A stretch of DNA of 27,385 nucleotides from a virus (taxonomy: Duplodnaviria; Caudoviricetes). The translations under genes were made by a program, and so were the position numbers. The notes beneath the pieces are model-generated. The model saw nothing but the letters and a program-made list of their open reading frames with translations. It ran no database searches and was not told where the DNA came from. The stretch covers positions 1 through 27,385 of IMG/VR virus record IMGVR_UViG_3300021412_000030. One strand, 5' to 3'. Below are positions 496 through 20,433 of this stretch, piece by piece (positions within the stretch are counted from its first letter, which is position 1; each line of letters begins with the position of its first letter).

Positions 496-1506
496 CTATC
501 GAATGCTATCGGACTCAACACCGGATCCAGTAGACGGAGACACAGGGACGACATCGTAGGTCTTAGCCTCTCTCTGTTCCGGTCGGTATAAGTGCAAATG
601 CAGTCCGCTCTCGGCGGCCTGGTCTTTAGGAGATACCTTGTCGAGGATCACGGCCATGTCCTTCCCGACGCGCGCCAAGTCTGTCGCCTTTGCTATCTTC
701 TTAATTTTCTCTCCATCTAGGATATCTAGAACGTCTCCTAGCCGAGAGGCAGCTTTCAGCGCGAGGTCTTGCTTGATAATCTTCAGAGCCGCATCTAGCT
801 CTTTCTTCGGCTCCTTTTCTACCGGCGTCCTAAGTGAATGCTCATATGCCCACGATTGCGATGGATCGAGATTGAACGCGCGCCCGGCATCAGAACATCC
901 GACCATAAGTGCAGTCTCAGCTATACCGATCTGCGCTTCTAGATTGCCCCTATACTTGAAGTAGTCTGAGGTGCGATTGACGAGGGAGTCTAGCTGAGAG
1001 AGTTTCGATATCGCCTTCGGTGATCTTTTACTGTCTAGCACGGAGTCTATGAGGGAGTCTATTTCTTCTCCTGTTTCACTTGATCCTGCTTCTTTATCTG
1101 ATTCATCTCGAGCGAAGCGAGAGGTAAGATGGTGCCCGTCGCTGACTTGCTTACCGAACCCGTCTTCGTCCCCAGTGCGCTCAAAGACGGCGAAGCCGGC
1201 TTCTTCATCCCCGCTATCGAGGACTTCACTAGCTCCAGCACCTTCCCCACTAGAATCGCTATCCCGACTATGTTTCCGATCTTCCCTATCTTCATTTGAT
1301 TGCTCTTTCTCCCCATCGCGAGGCGATCTCTCTGTCTCTGATTCTCCATCTAATGGCGAGCGCAGCGAGTCATCTGTCTGCTGATTAGCGATCTCTTCAG
1401 AGAGGTCAGAGACTATCTTGTCTAGACTCTGCCTATGGAGATCCTTGAGGCGATTCCTGTCTGAGTTAAGCCGGTCGCGCGCGGATGACGATGACATGAA
1501 TCCCAT
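496..1506 (-). CDS. hypothetical protein; acidic disordered N-half, helical C-half (possibly terminase small subunit-like)
   Basis: 336 aa ORF with AAGGAG RBS and own promoter; the TerS idea rests only on position and general character. Confidence 0.6.
   Translation of the reverse strand: MGFMSSSSARDRLNSDRNRLKDLHRQSLDKIVSDLSEEIANQQTDDSLRSPLDGESETERSPRDGEKEQSNEDREDRKHSRDSDSSGEGAGASEVLDSGDEEAGFAVFERTGDEDGFGKQVSDGHHLTSRFARDESDKEAGSSETGEEIDSLIDSVLDSKRSPKAISKLSQLDSLVNRTSDYFKYRGNLEAQIGIAETALMVGCSDAGRAFNLDPSQSWAYEHSLRTPVEKEPKKELDAALKIIKQDLALKAASRLGDVLDILDGEKIKKIAKATDLARVGKDMAVILDKVSPKDQAAESGLHLHLYRPEQREAKTYDVVPVSPSTGSGVESDSIR
1105..1125 (+). repeat. GA/GNA hairpin element copy 4
   Basis: ATCTC GA GC GAA GC GA GAGGT. 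Confidence 0.7.
1353..1373 (+). repeat. GA/GNA hairpin element copy 5
   Basis: ATGGC GA GC GCA GC GA GTCAT. Confidence 0.7.
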
Positions 1507-2836: not shown

Positions 2837-3394
2837 CTAGACCGCGAGTCCCACTTTCATCCGCTGACGCACGACAATCTCCCTCGCCTCTTCTGCCGTG
2901 AATCCGCCGTTAGCGACCAGACCATCGACGGCCTTTTTGATCGCTTTCTCTGGACCTTGCAGGATATTGCTGAGAGCCTGCCTTACTTCCGCTCTCCTAT
3001 TCAAGTCGTAACCGTAGTTGAAATAGTCGCAGGCTCCGTCTGCTTTCTCTACTTCGGTTCGTTCGTCTTCTCCCTCTTCTGGCTTCGGTGTGCTAGGAAC
3101 CATCTTGCCGTTGCACAATGCAAGCTGGCCCTTTGCCGACATCGCGCTGAGACGAACGTATCGCGATACCTCGTCCTTTCCCGTCGGACTCTTATCCTTC
3201 CCGATTTTCACTTCATCGATGCTTGAAGCCACGTCTCCCGCGGCGATTGCAGCTTTCACCATATCGGGAAGTGCCGCCATCAACCGCGTTTCCTGATGTT
3301 CCACCGTCTCTACCTCTGCGACCCCTGTTCCTGAAGTGCCGCCGCCGACTGTCTCTGTTACCTGAAGATTTTCTCCCGCGATACGCTTTGCCAT
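2837..3394 (-). CDS. hypothetical protein in its own transcription unit
   Basis: GAGGT RBS before MAKRIAG at 3394 (ORF track starts at 3430); flanked by promoter and terminator. Confidence 0.75.
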   Translation of the reverse strand: MAKRIAGENLQVTETVGGGTSGTGVAEVETVEHQETRLMAALPDMVKAAIAAGDVASSIDEVKIGKDKSPTGKDEVSRYVRLSAMSAKGQLALCNGKMVPSTPKPEEGEDERTEVEKADGACDYFNYGYDLNRRAEVRQALSNILQGPEKAIKKAVDGLVANGGFTAEEAREIVVRQRMKVGLAV

Positions 3395-3447
3395 TTTATC
3401 TACCTCTTCTAGATTCTGATTAAGCGCCATTGCCTAACCATAGAACA

Positions 3448-3476
3448 AGCTTAGCATGGCTAGAACAGGAAGTCAA
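3448..3476 (-). promoter_or_regulatory. sigma70-type promoter
   Basis: TTGACT-17 bp-TAAGCT with TG extension. Confidence 0.75.
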
Positions 3477-3637
3477 TAGGGCGACGAAGTTTATTTTCGT
3501 CCCCTTTTCCGGACAGCCAACCGCAAGTGAGTGCCTAGATAAATAAAGTGTGGCTTTTTTACCACAGTGCGCGTGCGCGGCCGGCCGCGATCACCAGGGC
3601 AACCCGATCGCCCACGATGCCCCGTAATGAGCGTGCA

Positions 3638-3668
3638 TGGGCGTAGGAACAATGATCACCTACGCCCA
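3638..3668. other. perfect 10-bp stem hairpin
   Basis: TGGGCGTAGG-11 nt-CCTACGCCCA. Confidence 0.55.
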
Positions 3669-4024
3669 GCTATGCTAGTATTCCGGAACCTACGGCCGCA
3701 CTGAACAATTTTAAAACCGCGCGAACAATTATTTCGTCGAAAATCCGAAAATTTCAACGCGCTTCTATCTAGTATCTAAACAGTATCTAGGCAGTATCGG
3801 GCTAGTATCGGAATAGGTGCTAAACCTATGATCGGCCGAAATTGCTAGGAAATAGTGCGAGATCAGCGATCAGAGTAGGTGTCTACTCGTCTTGTGCTTC
3901 CTCTTTGTTGACCACTTTTGAGGTCGGTAAATTTTACACTGTAGATTTTACACGGGTCGGCAAAAATGTTGGCATAGTTTATGGATATTTTTTACTATAT
4001 ATATAGACAATCCACACCTAAACT

Positions 4025-4080
4025 GACCTAAAAAGTGGTCACTTTGTCCCCAAAAGTGGTCATGACCTCAAAAGTGGTCA
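4025..4080 (+). repeat. three 17-bp iteron-like direct repeats
   Basis: GACCTAAAAAGTGGTCA, GTCCCCAAAAGTGGTCA, GACCTCAAAAGTGGTCA; inverted copy at 3909-3925. Confidence 0.8.
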
Positions 4081-4363
4081 CCCAAACCACCGCGCCAGCC
4101 TACCACATACCCCTTGCGTTCCAGGCCGATCTGTGCTAAGCTAAGCAGATCAAAGGTTTAGCAGATCGAACATGCGAAAATACCTATACCGATACTACCT
4201 AGATGCGGCCCCGAGACTGTTTAGATACTGGTTAGATGCGGCTCGAAAGTTTTCAAATTCGCTCAAAATAATTGTTCGCCTGAAACGTTCGTTCATACGT
4301 TCTTACAATTTCGTAATCGCTATGCGATATTCACGCCATTCAAATTCGCTAGATCGCGTAAGA

Positions 4364-4407
4364 ATTACATAGCTAGGTGACGAAAATTATAATGTTCGCC
4401 GGGCGAA
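4364..4407 (+). promoter_or_regulatory. probable promoter for the rightward block with overlapping operator palindrome
   Basis: ATTACA-18 bp-TATAAT (4388-4393) followed by TTCGCCgGGCGAA. Confidence 0.45.
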
Positions 4408-4533
4408 TCTTTAGGTAATAGAGTCCGTTTAGGCATACAGAATGCCGGAAAGTGTAGCAAATTTACCACACTTTTTTAGTCTAGTAGGCTTTATCGTAGT
4501 TGAAAAAGTATCTAAACTGGAAAGGACACGAGA

Positions 4534-5214
4534 ATGAGAAAGAAAGGCCGGGTAATTAGTCAGGAACAGATAGACAGGGCAATCGATGCCTGGATTCAGA
4601 AGGATCCAGACCATGCCAGAACAAGACTGAAGAAATTCGCCGAGTTTTCACTTGGGGTTGGTCTACTAGCCACAACAGACGTTCCTACACTTGATCTAGA
4701 GGAGGTTTCGTCAGATTTATTCGTCGGAGAGCTACCGATAGCTAAGTGGTGGAAAGGATTAACGTCGAAGGATCGAAGATCTATCTCAGTTAGATGGCAC
4801 TCTAGCTCTATTCGAGATTTGAGATCTCGTTACGATGCAGTCCAGGGAGATAAATCAGGTATCGAGGTAACGGAGATCGATCCAAGCGGTAGATCTATGA
4901 AGTTAAAAGGGAAATACACAGGATGGACCAGAGAGAGTAAGAAGGAAGGAAGGAAAATGAGAAGCATAGCCGAGATCGGTGCTCTATGGCCGCTATGTAA
5001 GCAGTGCGGTCATGTAGCACAGTCTCACAACGACTCAGGTGGACCCGATGACGGAGATCCGATGTGTGCTGGATCCTACAAAGAAAACGGATATAGTAGA
5101 TTTACATGTAGCTGCACAGGATACGACGGACCGACCTGGGAAGAGTTTAAGAAGCTGCTGACGCCGGAAGAGCTCGCTTTCTATAATCTTCGCTGCGCTC
5201 AGATTTCTAAGTAG
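4534..5214 (+). CDS. hypothetical protein with C-terminal Cys/His zinc-binding domain
   Basis: CxxCGHxxxxH...C...CxC motif; internal RBS and ATG at 4957. Confidence 0.65.
   Translation: MRKKGRVISQEQIDRAIDAWIQKDPDHARTRLKKFAEFSLGVGLLATTDVPTLDLEEVSSDLFVGELPIAKWWKGLTSKDRRSISVRWHSSSIRDLRSRYDAVQGDKSGIEVTEIDPSGRSMKLKGKYTGWTRESKKEGRKMRSIAEIGALWPLCKQCGHVAQSHNDSGGPDDGDPMCAGSYKENGYSRFTCSCTGYDGPTWEEFKKLLTPEELAFYNLRCAQISK
5185..5205 (-). repeat. GA/GNA hairpin element copy 7
   Basis: - strand AATCT GA GC GCA GC GA AGATT. Confidence 0.75.
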
Positions 5215-5234
5215 GAAAGGACAGGAGACTAAAT

Positions 5235-6152
5235 ATGGAGCACAGATTCGGGAAAGAAAAAAGCCTGTCAAGATTGAAAAGAGAAGATGAGTTAGCGGAC
5301 CACCTTGGGGTCGAGCAGAACGAGCACGACTTCGAGGAGTATCTTAAAAGGAAGGAAAAGGCATGGAATCTCGCTTCGCTCGATTCAGCGGAGAAAATGT
5401 ACTCACAGAGCATCGATCCCAAGAGAGAGAAGAGAGAACCTGCCAGAAATGTGGAGGGAGAATCAGAGAACAGTGGGTCTTCGACAGAGATAGACGGAAC
5501 AAGCCTGCCCATCGAATCCTTATCTGCACTAAGTGTGGGAAACAGTCTCGGACCTGATCAGAAGGGGACTAAACTAGATCTAAGGAATCATGGTGAAGGA
5601 ACGATCTACGCGGGAAAGCACATCACCGAGACGATAGTAGATCTCGAGATCGATCCAGAGTGGAAGGAACTCTTCAAGAAAACCTATAACTCCGCCGTCC
5701 CTAAACTCACACTAGAGCAGGTCATAGAGAAGTTCCACAAGGTAGACAGGGCTATCTATCTCCTCGGGGCTATCCGTAATGCTCTGAAACCTTACGCGAT
5801 GGAGGCTCTGCTTAAGAGTGCATCTGAAGAGGAACGTCAACAAGCTCTGAAGTTAGATGCCGAATTCCGCAAGAGATCTCGTAAGGCTCGATCCGCTCGA
5901 TCTGAAGTCGAGAATCCGGATGGTCCTGGATCTAGCTCTCGACCACGATCCAAGCGCGTGAGTCTATCTGTCAACAAATCTTCACTTCGTTCAGATTCTA
6001 AAGGTAAGACGAAGGCTCAGAAGACGGTCGATACTCTCTATGGTCTACAGATGGATCAGGCTGAGATAGAGTCTAACTGTGCGCGGCAGGGGCTTCTGGA
6101 TGACATGACTCGGAAGTATATCTCGGGCAAGTTCTCGGGAGGTGCTAAGTGA
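5235..6152 (+). CDS. hypothetical protein
   Basis: 305 aa ORF, AGGAG RBS. Confidence 0.75.
   Translation: MEHRFGKEKSLSRLKREDELADHLGVEQNEHDFEEYLKRKEKAWNLASLDSAEKMYSQSIDPKREKREPARNVEGESENSGSSTEIDGTSLPIESLSALSVGNSLGPDQKGTKLDLRNHGEGTIYAGKHITETIVDLEIDPEWKELFKKTYNSAVPKLTLEQVIEKFHKVDRAIYLLGAIRNALKPYAMEALLKSASEEERQQALKLDAEFRKRSRKARSARSEVENPDGPGSSSRPRSKRVSLSVNKSSLRSDSKGKTKAQKTVDTLYGLQMDQAEIESNCARQGLLDDMTRKYISGKFSGGAK
5366..5386 (-). repeat. GA/GNA hairpin element copy 8
   Basis: - strand GAATC GA GC GAA GC GA GATTC. Confidence 0.75.
5977..5997 (-). repeat. GA/GNA hairpin element copy 9
   Basis: - strand AATCT GA AC GAA GT GA AGATT. Confidence 0.75.
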
Positions 6153-6355
6153 TATCTCATGAAACCCACGCTCATGGTCTGACGGTTGGAGAGCTGATGC
6201 AGGTTCTATCCTTACTTGATTCCTCACAGAAGATAGTGTTTAGCGACGTGCAGTTCGGTGACTTCGATGTGCTCGGTCCTGGCATTGTAGGCAGACTGAG
6301 TGAGGACAATTTTCAGCAGGATTTGCGTCCGATTCTTCGACTGAGGAAACGGTAA
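6149..6355 (+). CDS. hypothetical protein
   Basis: GGAGGT RBS, GTGA overlap with the upstream stop; LTVGELMQVL start typical of small phage proteins. Confidence 0.65.
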   Translation: MISHETHAHGLTVGELMQVLSLLDSSQKIVFSDVQFGDFDVLGPGIVGRLSEDNFQQDLRPILRLRKR

Positions 6356-6375
6356 ACTATCAGGGAGGTTACGAA

Positions 6376-6564
6376 GTGATTGAGATATATGGCTCTGACA
6401 AATCCTTAGTAGTCGAGACAGAGAACTTTGTGGTCCATATCAGAGACGAGAAAGGTGAGCTAATCGTCAAGGCTAATCGAAAGATAGACGATACAGAAAG
6501 ATTGCCACTGGCCTACCTTCTCGGTCTCAACTACATGATCTTCAAGGCGAGAGAAAAGAAGTAA
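6376..6564 (+). CDS. hypothetical protein
   Basis: GGGAGGT RBS, GTG start. Confidence 0.65.
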   Translation: MIEIYGSDKSLVVETENFVVHIRDEKGELIVKANRKIDDTERLPLAYLLGLNYMIFKAREKK

Positions 6565-6591
6565 GATAGATAGAAGAGAAAGGATAGACAA

Positions 6592-8298
6592 ATGAGAACG
6601 ATACTCAACACAAAGTGTCCATACTGCAAAAAGCCGGCCAAAGAGAAGAATCGAGAGGAGATAGATGGGGAAATCTGGCTCAATCTAGAGTGCGGTCACA
6701 TCATCGTCAAGGACATGCTGAAGCCAGAGGATATCCAGATAGTCTCCTCTGACGGTAAGGTTCCATTTCCCTTTCAGCATTCTCCTACCGGCTTATTCAC
6801 CTTAGCTGACGGAAGCACACACGAATCGACAGTCAGCTTCCTAGAGCGTGCGGACTGTAACGGTCTGTGCCTACACGAGATGGGTCTTGGCAAGACTGTG
6901 ATCGAGTGCATCCTTCTCGCGCGCAATCCCCAACTTCTACCTGCTTTAATTGTCGTGAAGAGTGGACTACGCGCGCAGTGGTTCATGGAGATATTTCGAT
7001 GGACCGGAAAGGCTGCCCAGGTCATTACGTCCAGTCGAGAACTACCGCTGTTTGACTACTTCGACATCGTGATCATCTCGATCGATACCCTCCGCCTGGT
7101 CCGTCCAGATGTTAAGGTAGTCTCAGAGTTCGACATGATCGTATCCGAGAATGCCGGTAAGAAAATAGGCCCTCGACCGATCATATGGACCGATGAGATA
7201 TGCGCTAAGTTTAAGCATATCGCGATAGATGAGAGCCAGAAGATCAAGAACTCAGGATCTGCCAGGACTCAGGCTCTCCGCAAGATCGTTAGTGCATCCG
7301 AGAATCAGGGAGGGACTAAACCAAGAGTAATCTGCTATTCAGGGACCAATATCGAGAAGCACGCTGGTGAGTTTTTCGTCACTCTCAATCTGACCAGACC
7401 TGAGCTATTCCCAAATGAGTCTGTCTATCAGCGAGCCTACTGCGATATCGATCCAGAGACAGGCAAGATACAGGGGCTAAGGAATCCAGAGAGGTTCAAG
7501 GAGAGGACGAAGGACTTCATCATCCGATACAAACGCGATAATGTCCTTCCCGACCTCCCAAAGATTTTCAGACAGTTTAGACTAGCAGAACTAGAAGGCG
7601 GAGAACTACAGGCATACATCAAGGTCGTAAAGGAGTTTCAAGAAAGGATGGATGATCCAGAACATCCGATGATTCCGACAGAGATCTTAGGTTATCTGTC
7701 TAAGATGCGACATATAACTGGGATAGCGAAAACGAAGTCTGCGCTCGTGTTCATCGAGGAGTTCCTGTTAGAGTCGGAAAGAAAACTCGTGATTTTCCTG
7801 CATCACAAAATGGCCGGTTCTATACTAATGAAAGATTTAGAAAAACTATGTCGCGAAGCGGCATTCAATCCTCCATTACAGCTACACTCTGATCTAGACA
7901 TGAATCAGCGAGTAGCAGTGATTGAGGAGTTTAGGAAGCCAGGCAATCGTCTCTTAGTCGCCTCAACACTAGCATCAGGCGAGGGTCTGAATTTACAATT
8001 CTGTCAAGATTGCCTGATCATGGAGAGACAGTGGAATCCAGCAGCAGAAGAGCAGGCGGAGGCTCGCTTCCCTCGACCTAGACCAGATGACCCTTGGCCG
8101 CCCGGAGCTAGGATCAATGCTCACTATCTCATCGCAGCCGGGACGATAGACGATTTTCTCACCGACATCATCGAGACCAAAAGATCTAACGTGGCTCAGA
8201 CATTGGATGGCGAAGAAATCCAGTGGAATGAGGACTCGATCATCGCAGAGCTTGCTAAGGTTCTACAGACGAAAGGACTGAAGAAGTGGAAGCTATAG
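6592..8298 (+). CDS. SNF2-family (SF2) helicase/ATPase with N-terminal zinc ribbon
   Basis: HEMGLGKT Walker A, DESQ Walker B, SGT motif III, STLASGEGLNLQ, WNPAAEEQAEAR. Confidence 0.92.
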   Translation: MRTILNTKCPYCKKPAKEKNREEIDGEIWLNLECGHIIVKDMLKPEDIQIVSSDGKVPFPFQHSPTGLFTLADGSTHESTVSFLERADCNGLCLHEMGLGKTVIECILLARNPQLLPALIVVKSGLRAQWFMEIFRWTGKAAQVITSSRELPLFDYFDIVIISIDTLRLVRPDVKVVSEFDMIVSENAGKKIGPRPIIWTDEICAKFKHIAIDESQKIKNSGSARTQALRKIVSASENQGGTKPRVICYSGTNIEKHAGEFFVTLNLTRPELFPNESVYQRAYCDIDPETGKIQGLRNPERFKERTKDFIIRYKRDNVLPDLPKIFRQFRLAELEGGELQAYIKVVKEFQERMDDPEHPMIPTEILGYLSKMRHITGIAKTKSALVFIEEFLLESERKLVIFLHHKMAGSILMKDLEKLCREAAFNPPLQLHSDLDMNQRVAVIEEFRKPGNRLLVASTLASGEGLNLQFCQDCLIMERQWNPAAEEQAEARFPRPRPDDPWPPGARINAHYLIAAGTIDDFLTDIIETKRSNVAQTLDGEEIQWNEDSIIAELAKVLQTKGLKKWKL

Positions 8299-8335
8299 CT
8301 CGGAAGACCTCGCTCAGCTTAAAAAGGAGAAAGAA

Positions 8336-8527
8336 ATGACGAGTAATTGGGATGAGGCACAGACTCACTACATGCTGGAAAGGATAGCCGAGCGCGGCCA
8401 GGATCTCACTAAATGGGAGGAGGATTTCGTCTACTCGATTAACATGCTGGTCAATGAGAGAAGGGAGCTATCCGAGAAGCAGATGGATACTCTGAGGCGT
8501 ATCTATCAGGAAAAGGCTTTCGACTAA
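8336..8527 (+). CDS. hypothetical protein
   Basis: AAGGAG RBS; LTKWEEDFV..LSEKQ..L..I pattern common in small phage proteins. Confidence 0.7.
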   Translation: MTSNWDEAQTHYMLERIAERGQDLTKWEEDFVYSINMLVNERRELSEKQMDTLRRIYQEKAFD

Positions 8528-8546
8528 TCTTCGCTGCGCTTAGATT
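8526..8546 (-). repeat. GA/GNA hairpin element copy 10
   Basis: - strand AATCT AA GC GCA GC GA AGATT. Confidence 0.7.
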
Positions 8547-8573
8547 CTAGGGAGAGGATTGAGAGGAAGAGAA

Positions 8574-8744
8574 ATGACTTTGAACTGTCACAATTGTGGC
8601 AAAGAGATCCCACCTGAAGAGGGACGAATCGTCGAGGTGCCTACTGGAACCTGGATCGAGTGCAAAGAGTGTGTAGAGAAGAGGGCTATAGACTATGTTA
8701 TCGGACGAGTTCGCGATGGATCGCTTAAGGGAGGAAAGAAATGA
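8574..8744 (+). CDS. small zinc-finger protein
   Basis: CHNC...CKEC; GAGG RBS before ATG 8574. Confidence 0.65.
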   Translation: MTLNCHNCGKEIPPEEGRIVEVPTGTWIECKECVEKRAIDYVIGRVRDGSLKGGKK

Positions 8745-8875
8745 TGATTCTATACCCAATCGCCTGCATCATCGCAGCGATTATCCTAGCCGTCCTCAGT
8801 ATGATTCTAGACAGGCTCATACCGGATGAGGATATGTATCAGGGGATCGACAAGAGAGAAAGGAAAAGAAAGTGA
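8741..8875 (+). CDS. 44 aa single-TM protein
   Basis: MMILYPIACIIAAIILAVLSMILDRL..., GGAGG RBS, ATGA overlap. Confidence 0.6.
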   Translation: MMILYPIACIIAAIILAVLSMILDRLIPDEDMYQGIDKRERKRK

Positions 8876-9039
8876 CCCTAACATTCATCACCGTCTGGCT
8901 GCTAGTATTCATAGTCTTACTGTCAGCCTTCTGGTTTATCAACTGGTGCTTGGATGAGTTTTTGATTGAGGTAGAGATTGATGAGAAGTCTGAAGGAGAA
9001 AAGAATGCACCACCACATCACGATGTCAATAGACAGTGA
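8872..9039 (+). CDS. 55 aa single-TM protein
   Basis: MTLTFITVWLLVFIVLLSAFWFINWC..., GTGA overlap. Confidence 0.5.
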   Translation: MTLTFITVWLLVFIVLLSAFWFINWCLDEFLIEVEIDEKSEGEKNAPPHHDVNRQ

Positions 9040-9190
9040 TAAGCTAAGAGCTATTCAAGATTACCTGAAAAGCGATTTTGCGTTTATCGACGTGGATATT
9101 ACACCGGACGATCCAGAGATTACTAATGAGCTACGCAAGATATTCTTGCACATCCTGGGCTCTATACGGGATTACAAGTTACCAGTTTAA
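9005..9190 (+). CDS. hypothetical protein
   Basis: AAGGAG RBS before ATG 9005. Confidence 0.6.
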   Translation: MHHHITMSIDSDKLRAIQDYLKSDFAFIDVDITPDDPEITNELRKIFLHILGSIRDYKLPV

Positions 9191-9210
9191 GTCTGAACGA
9201 AGTGAAGACT
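9190..9210 (+). repeat. GA/GNA hairpin element copy 11
   Basis: AGTCT GA AC GAA GT GA AGACT. Confidence 0.75.
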
Positions 9211-9217
9211 AACTCGC

Positions 9218-9246
9218 TTGACTTTTAGCCCAACTTGATCTATACT
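9218..9246 (+). promoter_or_regulatory. sigma70-type promoter
   Basis: TTGACT-17 bp-TATACT in an intergenic gap. Confidence 0.8.
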
Positions 9247-9344
9247 TAGTAGATAAGGCGATCAGGCTCACTTAGACCTGAAGATGGCAAATATCTAAGA
9301 GTGAAAAAAAAATGAAGAAGAATGAGGAGACTAGGAGAGAAAAG

Positions 9345-9647
9345 ATGACTGACAACCAGAGAGTTATGGCCCTGGCGAAAATCATACGGTCCTATGCTCC
9401 AACTAAGAAGGATGATAGGATCTTGATGGAGGGAATAGAGAGGCAGAAGGATCTCACAGATGCAGAGATTCTCAAAGATCTGTCCTGCACTCTCCAAGAT
9501 GGACTCTATTATGGAAACTGGCCCTGGAATCGCGCTGCGATTGGATCGGTCGACATTGACAGGAGGAGAGAGACAGACAAGGAGGAAGGAGAGATCGTTC
9601 TAGGATTGGGAGATCTATCAAAGATTGAAGTAGAGGAGGGAAAGTGA
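9345..9647 (+). CDS. hypothetical protein
   Basis: AGGAG RBS before MTDNQ (alternative start 9312). Confidence 0.65.
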   Translation: MTDNQRVMALAKIIRSYAPTKKDDRILMEGIERQKDLTDAEILKDLSCTLQDGLYYGNWPWNRAAIGSVDIDRRRETDKEEGEIVLGLGDLSKIEVEEGK

Positions 9648-9868
9648 TAAGATTCTACTGTGTGACGTGTAAGAAAACAAAGCGTGCGCGGCGTAGGGTC
9701 TTGGGAAACGACGGAGAAAGTGAGACCTACTGCGCGCGGCATAATCCTCTCAGACTCTCTATGCAATCCAACCGGGCAGTATTTGTCAGAACTAGAGTGA
9801 AAGGTCACAACCGCGCGCAGGTCAAACTACCACAGCTTAACAAGCAGGCTGCTAAGAGAAAGAAGTAA
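9644..9868 (+). CDS. small basic Cys-containing protein
   Basis: CVTC...CARH, GAGGAGG RBS, GTGA overlap. Confidence 0.6.
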   Translation: MIRFYCVTCKKTKRARRRVLGNDGESETYCARHNPLRLSMQSNRAVFVRTRVKGHNRAQVKLPQLNKQAAKRKK

Positions 9869-9872
9869 AGAA

Positions 9873-10322
9873 GTGAGCATCAAACATCAGTCTATGTATC
9901 GTCAGCGTAATCTTGGACTTCAGGTTGATCCTCTGGTTATTTCATCAAAGGACGGCGACATCTCAATCTATCCTATAGTTCGAATCTCCTCTGAGCTTGC
10001 AGCATCTGAACTAGGAAAGGTCGAGGAGTTTAAGTGGGAATCTGGCAAGTATTTGGCTATCATCAAGGGGATCGATGTATTCATGGGAATCACTGGGACA
10101 GACATACTCCGTGTTCGTCTAGTCATTTATTTGGATTCAAAGGTAGATGTCTGGGAGGGATTCAAGTTCTTTGGTGTGCCTGAGATGGCTACGAACTTTT
10201 TGCATGGACTTGGAATAGGGCCTGGAAAAGTTAGTCCAGATGACATCGTAGGCAATACTATAGAGGTAGAGATTAAGGTAAGCGAGATCCTGGGTAGGAA
10301 GATGGTAGATATACGTTACTAG
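9873..10322 (+). CDS. hypothetical protein
   Basis: 149 aa ORF tiled within the operon. Confidence 0.6.
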   Translation: MSIKHQSMYRQRNLGLQVDPLVISSKDGDISIYPIVRISSELAASELGKVEEFKWESGKYLAIIKGIDVFMGITGTDILRVRLVIYLDSKVDVWEGFKFFGVPEMATNFLHGLGIGPGKVSPDDIVGNTIEVEIKVSEILGRKMVDIRY

Positions 10323-10344
10323 CTCAGATCTAAGAAAGGACAAG

Positions 10345-10947
10345 ATGACCGCATTCCCTCCGCGTGGCATAGAGATCATTGATCAGATCCGAGCTACCTT
10401 CCCAGATCTAGCTAAGTTAAGGGATGAAGAGTCTAGAAGGAAGCTGACCAGACTAATAGTCGAACAGATGTGTTATGAGTTGGGTCCAGCGTGGGGAACT
10501 AAGGCGCGCGACGCTCGGTCTCCTCAGTCTAAAGACTCAATAGCCTACAAGAGGCAGGATGGATCGATGGACATCTGGGACTGGCAGAATGGTGAGACTA
10601 GAGATAGACAGATTAAGTGGGGAGATCCTCCATCATACGCCAACGTGAGCGATGCCTACTTCATCGAGGTCCAGCCTATCAATCATCTCTACGTTGCTCC
10701 CATACCTATCACACTTAGACTATTGAACACCGATGAGATGATAGTAGTGATAGATGAGAAGATAGAAAGACTAGACGAGAAGCTGACGGATCTAGAGAAG
10801 AGCATCGCGACCTTAGAGTCCTTTACATCGATCACCCTACAAGAACTCTCGGTAGCTCTCCAGGATATCAGGACTGCCCAGGATCGGATGCTTGAGTCGA
10901 CAGGATTCCTAAAACTAACGCTCAGACCTCGCGAGACTAAGAAGTAA
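10345..10947 (+). CDS. hypothetical protein with C-terminal coiled coil
   Basis: AAAGGA RBS; heptad region IDEKIERLDEKLTDLEKSIATLE. Confidence 0.75.
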   Translation: MTAFPPRGIEIIDQIRATFPDLAKLRDEESRRKLTRLIVEQMCYELGPAWGTKARDARSPQSKDSIAYKRQDGSMDIWDWQNGETRDRQIKWGDPPSYANVSDAYFIEVQPINHLYVAPIPITLRLLNTDEMIVVIDEKIERLDEKLTDLEKSIATLESFTSITLQELSVALQDIRTAQDRMLESTGFLKLTLRPRETKK

Positions 10948-10961
10948 CTAAGAAAGAAGAA

Positions 10962-11411
10962 GTGAAGATGGCTAAGAATAGAACTAAAATCAACGGACTA
11001 CCAGTGATTGATAGCCTAAGAGATCTAGATGTAGATGTGCAGGTCTCGGACATAAAGCAGGCGAGGAAGAATGACCCTGCCAACTGTGCTATCGCTAGGG
11101 CTATCAAGAGGAAGACAGGGAAAGAGGCTAAGGTCTATCTCACTCGGACCTATGTAAAAGAGGAGGATCACTGGGATAGATATATAACACCACCAAGAGC
11201 TAGCCGTGAGATCGTCTCATTCGATAGGAGTCAGACATTCGATCCGGGGCAGTATAAGATCAATTATCCAAGTAAAGGTCAATCTCTAGAATATCAGAGA
11301 AGTCGTGATCGTAAAACAACGTGGAAAGGGAGAAAGGATAGATCAGCTCCAAGATCAGCACCGCAGAGGACTAAGAATGTAAGGGAATATGATCTGAAAG
11401 GGAAAAAGTAA
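10962..11411 (+). CDS. hypothetical basic protein
   Basis: 149 aa ORF; DPANCAIARAI motif. Confidence 0.7.
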   Translation: MKMAKNRTKINGLPVIDSLRDLDVDVQVSDIKQARKNDPANCAIARAIKRKTGKEAKVYLTRTYVKEEDHWDRYITPPRASREIVSFDRSQTFDPGQYKINYPSKGQSLEYQRSRDRKTTWKGRKDRSAPRSAPQRTKNVREYDLKGKK

Positions 11412-11894
11412 ATGAGTCTGGTCGATAAGAAGCGGATGATCGATCAACTGATCCTCCACGAAGGTCTGAGGCTAACTACGTATACCGACTCGACTGGCAA
11501 CGTCACGATAGGAATAGGCTATAATGTCTCAGACCGTGGATGGGGAGATCTGGAGCGCGCGATCGATAGGACGGTAGACAAGGATAAGCCGAAGATTACT
11601 AAGGCTGAGGCGATCCTAGTGTGTGACCACGACATAGAGATGTTCGAGATGTTTCTTAGGAAGTGGAAGATTTACCCTACTCTAGACCAGGTTCGTATGC
11701 GGGTAGTCCTAGATCTAGCCTACAATCTAGGTTCGGTCAAACTCAAAGAGTTCGTCAATACTAAGAAAGCGATCGAAGCCTATAACTTCGGCATAGCATC
11801 TGATCATCTCGCTAAGTCTAAGTGGGCCAAGCAGGTCAAGTCGCGCGCAGTTAGGCTTATCAAGATGCTCAGGACAGGCATTGACTATATCTAG
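11412..11894 (+). CDS. GH24 T4-type lysozyme (endolysin)
   Basis: catalytic E-x8-D-x5-T in HEGLRLTTYTDSTGNVTIGIG; T4-like C-terminus SKWAKQVKSRAVRLIKMLRTG. Confidence 0.93.
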   Translation: MSLVDKKRMIDQLILHEGLRLTTYTDSTGNVTIGIGYNVSDRGWGDLERAIDRTVDKDKPKITKAEAILVCDHDIEMFEMFLRKWKIYPTLDQVRMRVVLDLAYNLGSVKLKEFVNTKKAIEAYNFGIASDHLAKSKWAKQVKSRAVRLIKMLRTGIDYI

Positions 11895-11914
11895 AGGCTC
11901 GCTACGCTCGCTCT
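11894..11914 (-). repeat. GA/GNA hairpin element copy 12
   Basis: - strand AGAGC GA GC GTA GC GA GCCTC. Confidence 0.65.
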
Positions 11915-11941
11915 TAAATCTAGAAAGGGAGGGATAGGAAA

Positions 11942-12136
11942 ATGGATAGAAGAGAAGGGCTAATACTGATCGAGGAGACCTTGGCAAAGATAAGGAAAAT
12001 GGAGGACACAGAGGTAGCCATAGAGTTACTAGGAGAACTAGAGTATACAGTCGGGTTGCTCACCGAGGATTTAGTAGAGAAAGCAAAGATAGAGAAAGCA
12101 GAGCAGGCGGAGTTAGAGCAGGAGACCGAGGAGTAG
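11942..12136 (+). CDS. small acidic protein
   Basis: RBS present; Glu-rich 64 aa ORF. Confidence 0.65.
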   Translation: MDRREGLILIEETLAKIRKMEDTEVAIELLGELEYTVGLLTEDLVEKAKIEKAEQAELEQETEE

Positions 12137-12139
12137 GCT

Positions 12140-12592
12140 ATGTCTGTAGCTTTCTTAGAGTGCTCAATTATCATAAGGGAATCTTGGGAAAAGCATGAGA
12201 GAATCGAATGCTGTCCTCAGTGTCATAAGCATAAGCAGTTGATCTACGTCCGACCATATCGTGAGGGAGTCTTAGGGGAGGCAGGGAATACCGATTGGGA
12301 TCTATGTGTCGAAGGGATTGTCTGTTGCAATCTCTACCACTTCACTAGATCCCTACCTAGATCTTGGTGGGTCGAGAAGGCTAGGGAGTTAGGAGTTTAC
12401 CGAGAAGACATGCGTGGTTACATCTATCCAGCTAGTCCACATCGGAATACAGATGTTGAGAAGCAGCAGAGGGAGGTAGCGGATGACATACTACAAAGAT
12501 CTGGACGGAGAATACGAAGATCGAAATGGAGAGACGAAGATGAAAGAGAAAGACTCGGAGGTCTGCGTGTTTTTCAACGGCGAAGTAGATGA
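12140..12592 (+). CDS. hypothetical Cys-rich protein
   Basis: GAGGAG RBS; CCPQCH and CC motifs. Confidence 0.65.
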   Translation: MSVAFLECSIIIRESWEKHERIECCPQCHKHKQLIYVRPYREGVLGEAGNTDWDLCVEGIVCCNLYHFTRSLPRSWWVEKARELGVYREDMRGYIYPASPHRNTDVEKQQREVADDILQRSGRRIRRSKWRDEDERERLGGLRVFQRRSR

Positions 12593-12728
12593 GATGGCTA
12601 GTAAAGCTATAGAGTCGATAGTCAAGACAATTACTGAGCTATTGATCTATACCTATAATAAGGGATTAGAGAATGCATTGAAGCACGAATTGGAGAGGAC
12701 AAGAGAGATCATAAGGAAAGGAGGATAG
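12483..12728 (+). CDS. hypothetical protein overlapping the upstream gene
   Basis: GGGAGGT RBS; stop abuts the next start. Confidence 0.55.
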   Translation: MTYYKDLDGEYEDRNGETKMKEKDSEVCVFFNGEVDEMASKAIESIVKTITELLIYTYNKGLENALKHELERTREIIRKGG

Positions 12729-12729
12729 G

Positions 12730-13650
12730 ATGGTAGAACGAGAGCAGCTAATCTTCAACCTCGACTCACAGATCCTCAATACGATGGATCAGTGTGCAGA
12801 GAAATATAGGCTAGAGCACATCGAGCACTGGCGTCCTATGAGAAAGGCTCTTGCCCTAGAGAAAGGATCGCTCATGCACACTATGCTGAGAGTCTATCGA
12901 CAGGGCAAGAAGGATGGTCGAGTGGGCCTAGAAGAACATGGTCGCCTGGTCGATAAGGCTATCATGGTTAGTCGAGAGGCTTCATCATCTATGTCTATAG
13001 AATCGGACGAATTGGAAGAAGAGATTAGAACTTTTCAATCATACGTCCTCCGATGGCAGTATGATGGCTGGGAAATCTTAGACATAGAGCAGCCATTCTC
13101 TAAGATTCTATACGAAGATGAAGATCAGATCGACTACAACGGTAAGCTATACTCCGGCTTGACCATAATATATGAGGGAGTTATAGACGCACTCGTGAGA
13201 GATCCGAAGGTCGGGATAGTCGTAGTGGATACCAAGACAGAAGGTAGGAAGTCCTATCCCTACATCCTATCGAATCAATTCCAGGGATACGAGTGGGCAT
13301 TCAACTGTCCAGTTATAGTGGATAAGGTTGGCTTCCAGAAAACTTTAGCTGACAATGAAAGGTTCACTCGGCTAGAGCATAGATCAGGTCAGCCTGCAAT
13401 AGATGAATGGCGCGCGGATGCGATCGAGAAGGTCAGAGAAGCGATAGCCTGGCATAGAGATCTAACGTCCGGACGGAGGGATAGCCTGCGTAAGAATCGG
13501 ACATCTTGTGACAAGTATTCGGGATGCATCTTTCAGGGTGTCTGTAAGGTGCCAAAAGAATCCAGAACACACAAGCTACAGGCATTCTTCTTTAAGGACA
13601 AGCAATGGGATCCATATGATAGGCCAGACTTCGATGAGATAGCAGGATAG
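12730..13650 (+). CDS. PD-(D/E)XK exonuclease, Cas4/AddB-like
   Basis: GSLMH, E..F, GVIDAL, VVDTKT, QFQGY; one N-terminal Cys plus C-terminal CxxxxxCxxxxxC (Fe-S ligand pattern). Confidence 0.85.
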   Translation: MVEREQLIFNLDSQILNTMDQCAEKYRLEHIEHWRPMRKALALEKGSLMHTMLRVYRQGKKDGRVGLEEHGRLVDKAIMVSREASSSMSIESDELEEEIRTFQSYVLRWQYDGWEILDIEQPFSKILYEDEDQIDYNGKLYSGLTIIYEGVIDALVRDPKVGIVVVDTKTEGRKSYPYILSNQFQGYEWAFNCPVIVDKVGFQKTLADNERFTRLEHRSGQPAIDEWRADAIEKVREAIAWHRDLTSGRRDSLRKNRTSCDKYSGCIFQGVCKVPKESRTHKLQAFFFKDKQWDPYDRPDFDEIAG

Positions 13651-13669
13651 ATCTCGCTACGCTCGCTCT
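13649..13669 (-). repeat. GA/GNA hairpin element copy 13
   Basis: - strand AGAGC GA GC GTA GC GA GATCT. Confidence 0.65.
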
Positions 13670-13685
13670 GAACTGGCAGGAAAAA

Positions 13686-14057
13686 ATGAGTAAGAAGCAC
13701 AAGCATAAGGTTCACAAATATATGAGGGTAGAGTGGGGTAAGAAGAACTCTGTAATCTGGAGATGTGTCCTACCCGACTGCTCTCACTATGTCTCCGAAG
13801 GCTTCGCACTAAATCGAGCCTCTCTCTGCTGGCTCTGTGGTGAAGAATTTATCCTGACCACCAAGAAGCTAGCAAGGAAGAAGCCTAAGTGCGATGCTTG
13901 TCAATCTCGTCATTCCAGTCAACCTTGGAAAGAAACGCGCGCGGCCTGGTCTGGCGAAGATACGGGGGAAAGAGACACGAGGAAGAAGGATGATATAGAT
14001 CGGGATATCCTCTCGATCCTTCAAGATATAGAGATGAACCCCAAGGATCTAGAGTAG
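13686..14057 (+). CDS. zinc-binding hypothetical protein
   Basis: HxHKY, CxxxxCxH, CWLC, CDAC motifs. Confidence 0.7.
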   Translation: MSKKHKHKVHKYMRVEWGKKNSVIWRCVLPDCSHYVSEGFALNRASLCWLCGEEFILTTKKLARKKPKCDACQSRHSSQPWKETRAAWSGEDTGERDTRKKDDIDRDILSILQDIEMNPKDLE

Positions 14058-14059
14058 GT

Positions 14060-14188
14060 ATGCAGATCATCGTAGGAATAGTCAGCTTCTTCAGATACAC
14101 GATACCACGATGGTTCTACAGGTGGAGAGAGTCAAGAGAAGATCGATTCAGTCCAGAGATCCTACAACGGTATAAGAAGGAGAATTAG
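14060..14188 (+). CDS. 42 aa hypothetical protein
   Basis: MQIIVGIVSFFRY...; exactly fills the gap between neighbouring genes. Confidence 0.4.
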   Translation: MQIIVGIVSFFRYTIPRWFYRWRESREDRFSPEILQRYKKEN

Positions 14189-14189
14189 A

Positions 14190-14399
14190 ATGAGAATGCC
14201 AAACTTTACACGGGAAGAAGTAAAAGAGATAATCGACCTCTACAATCTATCAGAGTCGGATACAATTTGCATGACTCAACTACTGGTCCATATCCTATCG
14301 GCTCCGTTCAGCTCAGAACTAATCTGTAAATTGCTTAAACCTATTACCAATCTTGTAGAGCTAGCTGTCGAAGGGGCGAGGGAGAAGAAGAATGCCTAA
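14190..14399 (+). CDS. hypothetical protein
   Basis: AAGGAG RBS; overlaps the next start. Confidence 0.6.
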   Translation: MRMPNFTREEVKEIIDLYNLSESDTICMTQLLVHILSAPFSSELICKLLKPITNLVELAVEGAREKKNA

Positions 14400-15228
14400 G
14401 ACCTGCGATATCGTGCTAGGTGGACGATTCATGGGACTTTTCGTCGGGCCTAATGGGACAGGAAAGACTATCGCAGCCGCCTCATGGCCTGGAAACATCT
14501 TGTTCTTTGATTTCGATGGTCGGATGGCTCCTGTTAGACTCTTCTATCCCGACCGAAAGGACATCGAGTATATCACTGTAGGTTTGGACGGAGGGACTAG
14601 ATCCGACGTCATAGGATTCACAGAGTTCACACATCGCTTTGAAGATTTACAGGATCGATGCCCGTATGATCTAGTCGTCGGAGATAGCTATACGTCCTAC
14701 TCAGCTACCGCAGTCCTGCATCAGATGGGTCTACATGAGAAGGATGTGAAGAGGACGAAGGGAGGTCTACCTATACCAGACTGGGACGAGTATAAGGGTG
14801 AGACTGGAGTGATGCTTCAGATCTTGGAGATAGCTAAGATCCTACCATGTAACTTCATCATGACTGCTCATCCTGTCTCGAAGGCAGCTACTACTAAACA
14901 AGGAGGATCGACTAACGAGACTCTGGCATCAATGATCAGACAGTCTACCCTAGCAACCTATGGATGGAAGACTGTATCCTTCTTGCCCAACTACTTCAAC
15001 GAGATCTACTACTTCTACAATGAGGCTTCGGCTCAGGTCGGACAGGTGACTAGAAGGTTCGTTCAGACTGTGGCATCAGGAGAGATCATGGCTAAGACTG
15101 CACTCCCTCTCCCTGCTGTTATGGAAACTCAGGATAAGCCATTCTATCACGTTTTGCAGGCCCACTTGAAGGCTTACGATATCAAGCTTCAGGCGCGCGC
15201 GTTGGCGGTGGCTGGTGACGAGAAGTGA
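14392..15228 (+). CDS. AAA_24 / Sak4-like ATPase (putative recombinase)
   Basis: GPNGTGKT Walker A, LFFDFD, VVGDSYT Walker B, MTAH; lies between exonuclease and SSB. Confidence 0.85.
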   Translation: MPKTCDIVLGGRFMGLFVGPNGTGKTIAAASWPGNILFFDFDGRMAPVRLFYPDRKDIEYITVGLDGGTRSDVIGFTEFTHRFEDLQDRCPYDLVVGDSYTSYSATAVLHQMGLHEKDVKRTKGGLPIPDWDEYKGETGVMLQILEIAKILPCNFIMTAHPVSKAATTKQGGSTNETLASMIRQSTLATYGWKTVSFLPNYFNEIYYFYNEASAQVGQVTRRFVQTVASGEIMAKTALPLPAVMETQDKPFYHVLQAHLKAYDIKLQARALAVAGDEK

Positions 15229-15413
15229 CTATCGGTGAGGCTATTGAACTTCTGACTAAACTCAAAGGTAGGCATGGCGATATTGAGGTATTCTTCGACT
15301 GTCCACAGTGTGGGAAGTCGTTCAGTCCCTCTACAGTAACAGCTATGGCTGTGCATTTCTCAGATGAAGAGTCAGTTAATTCGGGGAAAGGGAGGAAGAA
15401 TGCTGACCGATGA
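15225..15413 (+). CDS. small hypothetical protein
   Basis: GTGA overlap; MTIGEAIELL...HGDIEV, CPQCG. Confidence 0.6.
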   Translation: MTIGEAIELLTKLKGRHGDIEVFFDCPQCGKSFSPSTVTAMAVHFSDEESVNSGKGRKNADR

Positions 15414-15618
15414 GGAGCTTCACGAGAGATACTACTATCACAAGCCAAACGAAAGGAAGCAAGAGCTGCACGACCTGATCAATAAGAAGATGGAGGACGT
15501 GGCAAGAGTAGTGGAGCACAACCTCCCTGAAGGCAGAGAGAAATCTCTGGTCCATACGAAATTGGAAGAGGCCAGGTCCTGGGCTAATTCGGCTATCGCG
15601 AGGTCGAAGGATCTCTGA
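15400..15618 (+). CDS. Acb2/Tad1-like helical hairpin protein (putative immune-signal sponge)
   Basis: YYYHKP...LPEGREKSLVHTKLEEARSWANSAIAR; GGGAGG RBS before ATG 15400. Confidence 0.7.
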   Translation: MLTDEELHERYYYHKPNERKQELHDLINKKMEDVARVVEHNLPEGREKSLVHTKLEEARSWANSAIARSKDL

Positions 15619-15686
15619 GAGGAGGTAGAGGATAGAGTAGGGTGAGAAGAACGACGACTAACCAACAGACAGAGAGGAAAACGAAA

Positions 15687-16145
15687 ATGCCAAGATTGCA
15701 AATCACACCGGAAGAGTTCAAAAGAGCGAAAATGGTGAGGCCTGGCTGGTTTCCCTCATTGATCAAGGAAGTCACACTGGAACTGTCGAAGGACAAGCAA
15801 TCTCACAACATCGTGCTTGACCTGGAGAACGCGGACAACGAGAGCGAGTTCATCGGTGTTCCAGCAAAGCACTGGCTCACGGAGAAATACATCCAAGGAG
15901 TCGTCTCGTTCGTGAAAGCCTTCGATCCTGACATACCAGAGGATCGGATCGCGGACATCGAGTTCAGCGACTACAAGGGGAAGTATATCTATGCGAAGTG
16001 GGGAACCAATCGTGGTAAGGATGGCACTGACCCACCGCGTAATAATATCGAGGACTGGGCACCTCTTCCCTCCAAGTGGACGCATCTGAACAAGACCAAG
16101 GATGAGTCCGTAACCTCATCCGTGACCACTTTCGAGAAAGTCTAG
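15687..16145 (+). CDS. single-stranded DNA-binding protein (DUF669-like)
   Basis: PGWFPSLIKEV..SK OB-fold start, RNNIEDW end; follows the AAA_24 gene; terminator downstream. Confidence 0.65.
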   Translation: MPRLQITPEEFKRAKMVRPGWFPSLIKEVTLELSKDKQSHNIVLDLENADNESEFIGVPAKHWLTEKYIQGVVSFVKAFDPDIPEDRIADIEFSDYKGKYIYAKWGTNRGKDGTDPPRNNIEDWAPLPSKWTHLNKTKDESVTSSVTTFEKV

Positions 16146-16151
16146 TCAAAC

Positions 16152-16192
16152 AAAGGGCGGTGGGAGATCTACTCTTACCGCCCTTTTCTTTT
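16152..16192 (+). terminator. intrinsic terminator
   Basis: AAAGGGCGGTGGGAG/CTCTTACCGCCCTTT stem followed by TCTTTT. Confidence 0.85.
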
Positions 16193-16212
16193 GGAGTCAG
16201 GGAGAGAAAAGA

Positions 16213-17565: not shown

Positions 17566-17918
17566 ATCGAATGAATCCAGATCTATTCGTATATCTATCA
17601 GGACCAATCACAGCAAGTGATGAGTTCTCGATCGAGGATAATATAGCATCAGCCTTGGCAGTCTACTATGAATGCCTTAAATCTGGGATTCCAGCGTTCT
17701 GTCCACATTTAACTGCCATGTATCCATCAGCACACTATGCTATATCATATGAGATGTGGTTAGAGTATGACTTCACGATAATCAAACGTTGCACCCATGT
17801 GCTTTTATTGCCAGGTTGGAGACATTCTAATGGGGCAAAGCTGGAGATAGACTATGCTAAGTCTATTGGTATTCCAGTAATGAATACGATTTCTGAGATC
17901 TTGGAATCGATCATATGA
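17562..17918 (+). CDS. DUF4406/DUF1937-like protein (nucleoside 2-deoxyribosyltransferase-like fold)
   Basis: VYLSGPIT..FCPH..D..IIKRCTHVLLLPGWRHSNGAKLEIDYAKSIGIPV. Confidence 0.8.
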   Translation: MNRMNPDLFVYLSGPITASDEFSIEDNIASALAVYYECLKSGIPAFCPHLTAMYPSAHYAISYEMWLEYDFTIIKRCTHVLLLPGWRHSNGAKLEIDYAKSIGIPVMNTISEILESII

Positions 17919-20419: not shown

Positions 20420-20433
20420 GGCAGGTCGACAGC

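Follow-up and report, generated by a model that had tools for sequence, protein, structure and literature searches.

The DNA considered here, referred to below as the window, is a 27-kb (27,385-nucleotide) stretch of a tailed-phage genome, virus record IMGVR_UViG_3300021412_000030, which CheckV rates as 59% complete. Two of its proteins are also present on a 49,324-bp contig, and the source phage is podovirus-like, with a genome of ~49 kb. Its genes form two divergent arms: a leftward packaging and structural arm that begins at 3430 and, in relatives, runs on into the gene for the terminase large subunit, and a rightward replication arm that extends from 4534 to 21672. A reading of this DNA from its sequence alone had placed a switch of gene direction at ~4000, and the switch is there; the gap between the arms is filled by a mirror-image element, the subject of what follows. 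The genes and the gap that matter to the argument are:

496-1506, minus strand: probable terminase small subunit (so named for its place in relatives, where it lies upstream of the large subunit)
2837-3430, minus strand: conserved 197-aa protein (p197), first gene of the left arm, without a fold match
3431-4533: intergenic region between the leftward packaging/structural arm and the rightward replication arm; gene order is the same in relatives
5235-6152, plus strand: fast-evolving 305-aa protein, encoded just upstream of the SNF2 helicase gene; alternative initiator candidate
17915-20419, plus strand: family-A DNA polymerase (PolA) with an N-terminal uracil-DNA glycosylase (UDG) domain
20434-21672, plus strand: DUF3987 protein, candidate self-loading helicase, modelled as an MCM-type AAA+ domain (residues 1-308) followed by a winged helix (residues ~315-400)

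The families recognized among the 24 window proteins that were scanned are an SNF2 helicase, a PD-(D/E)XK nuclease, an AAA_24/Sak4-like protein, a ParB-methylase fusion, the PolA with its UDG domain, the DUF3987 protein and an Acb2/Tad1-like protein. The last of these (15364-15618; PF24729, E 2e-15) is likely to be an anti-defence sponge. A cold-shock-domain gene (43-390 in the window) lies between the probable small and the large terminase genes across the family, and a probable ejection protein of 1361 aa (21892-25977) has an N-terminal M15 peptidase domain. The two-arm layout, together with a distant DUF3987 homologue (21-28% identity), recurs in Desulfofustis phage MD01, Mel-JY34, vir526, Tiera, Kuura and the Jamesmcgillviruses. 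At the level of nucleotide sequence, blastn of the element region against named phages yields a single 29-nt chance match; an Rfam search yields a single sub-threshold match, located outside the mirror element.

The element itself is made up as follows:

3535-3566, plus strand: outermost mirrored block (partner 4453-4484; 72%, coordinate sum 8019)
3721-3818, plus strand: left outer arm, an ungapped 98-nt inverted repeat with 4182-4279 (73/98 match)
3728-3757, minus strand: outward-facing sigma-70-like site, mirror of 4243-4272 (weak evidence)
3760-3814, plus strand: left array of five 11-bp-phased units, four starting with AGTATC; candidate initiator or helicase sites
3830-3871: GATC cluster on the inner side of the left array (3830, 3861, 3868), with right-side counterparts at 4128, 4148 and 4164
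3909-3925, plus strand: inner motif TGACCACTTTT, sole left copy
3985-4008: A/T-rich centre including a 12-bp TA palindrome; candidate unwinding element
4031-4080, minus strand: inner motif TGACCACTTTT, three inverted right-side copies (4031, 4052, 4070)
4182-4279, minus strand: right outer arm, partner of 3721-3818 (73/98 match)
4186-4240, minus strand: right array of five 11-bp-phased units, mirroring the left one (coordinate sum 8000)
4243-4272, plus strand: outward-facing sigma-70-like site (weak evidence)
4394-4408: GTTC-N7-GAAT, a near-match to the family-wide palindrome GTTC-N7-GAAC; candidate operator
4453-4484, minus strand: outermost mirrored block, right copy

The mirrored blocks that had been described around ~4000 are real, and each is at its described place. 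When the left arm is aligned locally with the reverse-complemented right arm, the score is 123, compared with a mean of 26 (sd 3.8) and a maximum of 42 in 300 dinucleotide shuffles; a scan of the whole window for inverted 8-mers peaks at 4000 with a count of 44, the runner-up peak being 11. Three exact blocks had been singled out for having the same coordinate sum, 8000 (3721-3734/4266-4279, 3771-3784/4216-4229 and 3803-3811/4189-4197). Their positions are exact, but they are not independent of each other: all three lie in the one ungapped 98-nt repeat, the best block of the mirror, whose arms are ~74% identical and which is centred within 1 base of the 12-bp central TA palindrome (3995-4006, sum 8001). 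The other exact blocks are less strictly disposed: 3545-3553/4466-4474 sums to 8019, 3818-3827/4154-4163 to 7981, 3830-3837/4124-4131 to 7961 and 3909-3925/4064-4080 to 7989. The motif of this last block is asymmetrically distributed, a single left copy being set against three right ones. The mirror centre is the one place in the window where a 24-mer reaches 21 A/T residues or more, and it coincides with the midpoint of the arms. Single-strand fold-back at the mirror is strong (z -10.6). The 11-bp phasing is also borne out, with AGTATC at 3771, 3782, 3793 and 3804 in the left arm. The mirrored right array is phased as had been said, although the description needs amending: each arm has five units, and on the right only two of them have the exact AGTATC.

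Several other short sequences in and around the element deserve mention. An exact extra copy of the first left-array unit at 4507-4517, just upstream of the first rightward gene, suggests that whatever reads the array may also regulate that gene. GTGTAAAAT occurs twice, inverted, just to the left of the mirror centre (3931, 3945) and again at 2663, in a second non-coding stretch, where it adjoins a TGGTATAAT promoter-like site (~2686). For the palindrome TTAC-N6-GTAA in the right arm (4303-4316), the L002/L037 lineage has a nearly identical counterpart in its left arm (L002 ~7397), and 7 other loci checked have none. Dispersed CTTCGCTGCGCT-like motifs of ~12-22 bp are found at or near gene ends (418, 1528, 5188, 5981, 8529, 9195, 11898, 13653); where checked, they follow the orientation of the gene arms, and they are possibly transcription or RNA-processing signals.

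How general is this design? Relatives were found by scans with a 44-sequence alignment of p197, which reached 68 loci (22 viral and 46 metagenomic, one of them the window's own record) and none in bacterial or archaeal genomes. The mirror was scored in 25 of the 68, these being representatives with at least 800 bp upstream of p197. It beats all 12 shuffles at 18 of the 25 loci, and thus, conservation having been proposed as a check on the original reading, at the same place in 17 of the 24 relatives; its score is at least 50 in 14 of the 25 (13 of the 24 relatives), while 22 downstream control regions score 24-35. Four marginal loci (L063, L043, L083, L041) are weak cases, since the shuffles were scanned at a coarser step. 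Among the seven misses, four (L069, L071, L086, L096) end near the centre, so that most of one arm is missing, one (L092) is weak, and two (L053, L054) have a different gene order and no mirror. In this L053/L054 lineage the orientation of p197 with respect to the terminase genes is reversed, and a mirror upstream of p197 was not found. One 58-kb contig (L098, L099) carries two p197 genes ~49 kb apart with different neighbours; the upstream DNA of the two is 91% alike over only ~370 bp, and the contig is possibly a chimera of two relatives.

What is kept from lineage to lineage is the layout. Nineteen loci with both arms were picked after mirror scoring, and in all but one (18 of 19) the midpoint between the arms is no more than 30 bp from the 24-mer richest in A/T, as sought over +/-300 bp with ties resolved toward the midpoint; some lineages have (TA)n at the centre, others non-palindromic poly(A). 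Among tandem periods, 11 or 22 bp comes out best in 31 of 34 arms, as against 11 of 102 shuffled arms (17 regions, L043 and L083 having been left out as near-copies of L048). The arrays lie ~115-290 bp from the centre. Proceeding from them toward the centre, many arms have GATC sites (pairs of which, ~31 bp apart, recur in relatives), GGTAGG and/or a C-run at ~50-100 bp, and TTGTCT at 15-30 bp, a series of which the window's arms carry only a part. Read toward the centre, 29 of 30 inner arms are pyrimidine-rich, the exception being the window's right arm.

The array units, in contrast, are lineage-specific yet alike between the two arms of one genome: arms score 32-123 against their own partners, as compared with cross-lineage medians of 22-26.5, although a genome's own pair tops every cross-lineage comparison in only 8 of 17 cases, the losses being mostly to sister lineages. 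(A technical note: a weak common core, approximately W-W-C-Y/W-W-R, is discernible across lineages, with information of 4.69 and 4.47 as against column-shuffled maxima of 3.88 and 3.98 in 15 lineages, L084 and L099 being left out; in this comparison the controls were given fewer restarts than the observed runs, and the effect of kinship was left in.) Relatives thus keep layout and place while the sequences of their units differ, which favors the earlier suggestion of symmetric protein-binding sites over a recent duplication. A family-wide regulatory architecture is real.

Across whole genomes and more distant phages, the picture is less uniform. The mirror is the top genome-wide inverted-repeat peak in three of four near-complete relatives; in the fourth (G004) it is not among the top four. 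The top mirror is at or near the divergence point in four of eight distant named phages (Tiera, Mel-JY34, vir526 and ctLwi270), and in Desulfofustis phage MD01 the mirror at the divergence point ranks third. Vibrio phage VS-ABTNL-3 has only a short A/T-rich inverted repeat, which was unscored. Since the best periods in the distant phages are mostly not 11 bp, the 11-bp design is established only for the closer family. Phage vir526 (L104 385-782; assigned to Methanomicrobiales) has a strong mirror at its gene-divergence point, with opposed arrays of 8-9-bp TGCATTT units, and it encodes a distant DUF3987 homologue. Searches of a limited literature collection found no account of an origin in this phage lineage, and the consulted passages of the preprint on phage MD01 (10.1101/2023.02.06.527410) contain nothing on its origin or its ends.

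Which protein reads the arrays? The strongest candidate is encoded at the far end of the rightward arm. The DUF3987 protein is recognized by its match to PF13148; searches of its sequence against the PDB gave no match, and its connection to MCM was made by fold search alone. An AlphaFold model from a 60-sequence alignment (pLDDT 89) retrieves MCM chains in every Foldseek match listed (best E 2e-10). In VIA-align comparisons, residues 1-308 align with MCM (Z 18.4, rmsd 3.4, 246 aligned) and with SCCmec Cch (Z 11.4, rmsd 4.5, 245 aligned); matches to winged helices cover residues ~315-400. The model is without an MCM N-terminal domain; the match begins at residue 1, against the AAA+ region of MCM. 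The protein is accordingly predicted, from its model, to consist of an MCM-type AAA+ domain and a C-terminal winged helix. This agrees with what PMC4889955 says of DUF3987 proteins generally, that they are MCM-related SF6 helicases with a C-terminal winged helix, proposed to be phage replicative helicases; the same source names 119X, a distant relative, among viruses listed as having no primase. One DUF3987 protein is described in PMC11724360 as having helicase activity, with 5' to 3' polarity, a polarity opposite to that given for the SaPI Reps in PMC9371898.

Other candidates are less obvious. Relatives keep a gene for the 305-aa protein (17-29% identity) in front of their SNF2 gene, and the protein's family has no meaningful Pfam or PDB match. 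For p197, Foldseek gives no match at E 0.001, the best Z is 4.5 and the structure atlas is blank. A C-terminus shared by p197 and the 305-aa protein was considered and rejected (hhalign probability 1.7%). Five records were scanned for further replication and maintenance functions: Prim-Pol and DNAG_N were found in none of the five, with controls detected (a divergent primase could be missed), nor was a phage integrase domain, again with its control detected. The protein-primed polymerase PF03175 was also found in none of the five, although its control likewise went undetected. The sole polymerase found is of family A.

We consider it somewhat probable, on balance, that the mirror element is the phage's bidirectional replication origin and works like the ori of a SaPI. 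Of the three functions first put forward for it, a bidirectional origin is the best, as an inferred role; the resemblance to herpesvirus oriL that had accompanied it gives way to a closer one with origins of the SaPI and archaeal types. The argument draws on the anatomy of the element, on its conservation at the point of gene divergence with lineage-specific units, and on the modelled helicase fold; the functional steps are inferred. One hexamer of the DUF3987 protein would be assembled on each array, bound through its winged helices at sites that recur once every helical turn along the same face of the DNA; alternatively, the array might be read by the 305-aa protein. Facing each other, the two complexes would open the centre, whether TA or poly(A), and two forks would depart from it, co-oriented with transcription of both arms, with PolA as the synthesizing enzyme. 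Since no phage primase is recognizable, priming would fall to the host primase or to transcripts from the outward-facing promoter-like sites.

Several features of the system sit uneasily with an origin: 1) The distance from array to centre (~115-290 bp) is far for direct melting. 2) A fairly conserved winged helix would have to face units that diverge from lineage to lineage (mean column conservation is 0.59 in the winged-helix region and 0.62-0.74 in other regions of the DUF3987 protein). 3) The helicase gene is 16 kb from the element, and no primase was found. 4) The mirror is uneven among relatives (outside the top four peaks in G004, weak in L092 and L063, missing from L053/L054), and a genome's own arms lead all cross-lineage comparisons in only 8 of 17 cases. 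GC skew had been put forward as a check. It does switch at the element, but it tracks gene strand and was rejected as independent evidence for an origin.

The strongest rival was absent from the candidates first proposed: the element may be a site of packaging and terminus processing, where the small terminase would wrap the phased arrays and leave the large subunit to cut close to the A/T centre, setting one boundary of a direct terminal repeat. We regard this as a possibility to be taken seriously, if an unlikely one. The array-binding candidate would then be the probable terminase small subunit, which is fast-evolving (33-40% identity) and encoded 2.5 kb from the element. DNA packaging is directional and does not require exact mirror symmetry about a meltable centre. 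Caulobacter phage Kuura has a 606-bp direct terminal repeat according to PhageTerm (PMC9959647), and the end repeat is also seen in its sequence here; its start is ~55 bp away from a poly(A) tract that forms the centre between opposed units of 10-bp period, and a terminus so near to a similar centre points to a packaging role. The distant relative Shea is reported to have terminally redundant ends and an episomal state (PMC13348215). For eight of 13 Jamesmcgillvirus phages the records have a common first position, which lies in non-coding DNA of loosely similar make-up ~2.2 kb upstream of the small-terminase gene, although shared starts of this kind may be a matter of convention. Terminal repeats suspected in Neko and TF17 were rejected, their records being simply opened at gene 1.

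These isolates are distant (their helicases are only ~21-25% identical to the window's) and their mirrors are weak: 8-10 of 200 shuffles reach Kuura's and 1-2 of 200 reach that of PaMx41, and in Kuura, Neko and PaMx41 the divergence-point mirror is not a genome-wide peak. GATC is enriched near the centres of the relatives (12.1 per kb, compared with 6.1 per kb across loci), which recalls the pac site of phage P1, where GATC is also present, but in the window the enrichment is slight (11.1 vs 9.6 per kb). Contig ends, finally, are equivocal. At 800-1100 bp they number 12 of 45 upstream and 8 of 41 downstream, with no clear pile-up (34 of the 68 loci, redundant ones included, have at least 1300 bp upstream), and many contigs end within the A/T tract or shortly beyond it, for which homopolymer dropout is another explanation.

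Origin and terminus need not exclude each other. An origin may also adjoin the end of virion DNA, as the similar element does in Kuura, and the two readings are compatible: an origin beside a terminus would fit the origin-type and the Kuura-type facts alike. One can go further, on shakier ground, and speculate about a widespread family of 45-50 kb podovirus-like phages, without a recognizable primase, in which a mirror-image origin is read by a stand-alone MCM-like helicase, the arrays change together in each lineage (thereby conferring replicon specificity), and the element also stands at the terminal-repeat boundary, coupling the start of replication to the formation of genome ends. This larger proposal is decidedly tentative. 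The element itself is conserved and sharply defined in more than a dozen lineages, and these supply natural cognate and non-cognate pairs; with them, the search for an origin and its opening by a minimal MCM-like motor become open to direct test, as do priming in a phage without a recognizable primase and the coincidence of origin and genome end.

A purely transcriptional role is improbable. The element could consist of duplicated promoter/operator modules, back to back, that switch both arms and have no part in replication; it does lie between divergent genes, its two outward sigma-70-like sites are exact mirrors (3757, 4243), and the palindrome GTTC-N7-GAAC recurs throughout the family (in 17 regions it has 11 copies with spacing 7, any other spacing from 0 to 13 occurring at most once; GAACA half-sites of the window are at 3703, 3723 and 4270). 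Set against this, the count of sigma-70-like sites is near chance (6 vs 3.0 +/- 1.7 expected), the promoter- and operator-like sites are mostly outside the arrays or one-sided, and such a switch leaves the central A/T tract, the fixed geometry and the pyrimidine bias of the inner arms unexplained. The corresponding scan for terminators found 5 sites, with 3.2 expected.

Still harder to sustain is a partition centromere for an episomal (pseudolysogenic) state, to be bound by the ParB-methylase fusion or another adaptor. Arrays of 11-bp iterons recall parC of plasmid R1, which has them; a ParB_N-methylase fusion is encoded, no integrase was found in any of the five records, and Shea, again, is reported as episomal (PMC13348215). 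But ParA, ParM and TubZ were not found among the 24 window proteins scanned, and a centromere needs neither an A/T centre nor inverted geometry. The two remaining functions of the sequence-only reading, a hairpin-telomere resolution site and a junction of inverted terminal repeats, have very little to recommend them: there is a TA palindrome on the dyad axis, but the perfect dyad is only 12 bp long and many relatives have poly(A) in its place, the strong fold-back score merely restates the inverted repeat, a protelomerase domain (PF16684) was found in none of five records (four of them at least 90% complete) with its control detected, and arms that are only 74% alike, in company with a family-A polymerase, fit a terminal-repeat junction poorly. 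An assembly artefact (a fold-back chimera) or a recent inverted duplication, for which symmetry alone speaks, is very unlikely indeed, because the same layout is present with different sequence at the same place in independent assemblies; the arms are diverged, and flanking gene order matches that of relatives.

Comparison with known systems returns the argument to the origin. According to PMC9371898, SaPI origins have opposed iterons around an AT-rich centre; the winged helix of Rep binds them and two hexamers load themselves. The window's element likewise has five phased units on each side, opposed, around its A/T centre (3985-4008), and the phage, like the islands with their SF6 Reps (SaPI2, SaPIbov1) and SCCmec with its Cch, encodes an AAA+ protein that is modelled as MCM-related, with a winged helix at its C-terminus. 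The differences are considerable: 1) SaPI iterons are 5-6-mers in the same account (PMC9371898), while the units here are degenerate, 11-bp-phased and ~115-290 bp out, with extra motifs inside them. 2) The SaPI ori directly follows rep in that account, while here the helicase gene is at 20434-21672 and the element at ~4000. 3) A primase gene is described as upstream of, or fused to, rep in SaPIs; here it is PolA that lies upstream, and no primase was found. 4) The phage helicase is without an N-terminal domain before its ATPase. 5) The element belongs to a tailed phage with a PolA of its own.

In archaeal oriC, inverted ORB elements surround an unwinding element, and Orc1/Cdc6 loads MCM. The phage element has in common with it the inverted sites on either side of an A/T centre, runs of G/C close to that centre and a motor of (modelled) MCM type; it differs in that no Orc1/Cdc6 was found among the 24 proteins scanned, both flanking genes included, and in that the helicase model is without the MCM N-terminal domain. 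E. coli oriC has two arrays of low-affinity DnaA sites, oppositely oriented and spaced at ~11 bp, with the unwinding element to one side of them. Two opposed arrays and the ~11-bp spacing are common to both, whereas in the phage the centre is between the arrays and the units are lineage-specific and probably not DnaA boxes. The herpes simplex oriL is a near-perfect palindrome of ~144 bp; a mirror about a TA-rich centre, as in oriL and oriS, and a nearby gene for a superfamily-2 helicase (here SNF2) are shared features, but the bacteriophage mirror is diverged, extends over 450-950 bp and has phased arrays.

Outside the realm of origins, the Kuura terminal region, the T7 terminal arrays and P1 pac resemble the element in having short repeat arrays in non-coding DNA near a small-terminase gene, and the Kuura terminus is situated inside a weak version of the same layout. 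The short terminal repeat arrays of T7 are direct, however, while those of the element are inverted. Telomere resolution sites of the N15 telRL type are long perfect palindromes (~40-56 bp), in contrast to the 12 bp found here in a group of five records where no protelomerase PF16684 was found, and the arms of the element are not near-identical (73/98), as distinct from those of protein-primed linear genomes with inverted terminal repeats. The class to which the element most likely belongs is that of the opposed-iteron origins, of which it would be a variant form.
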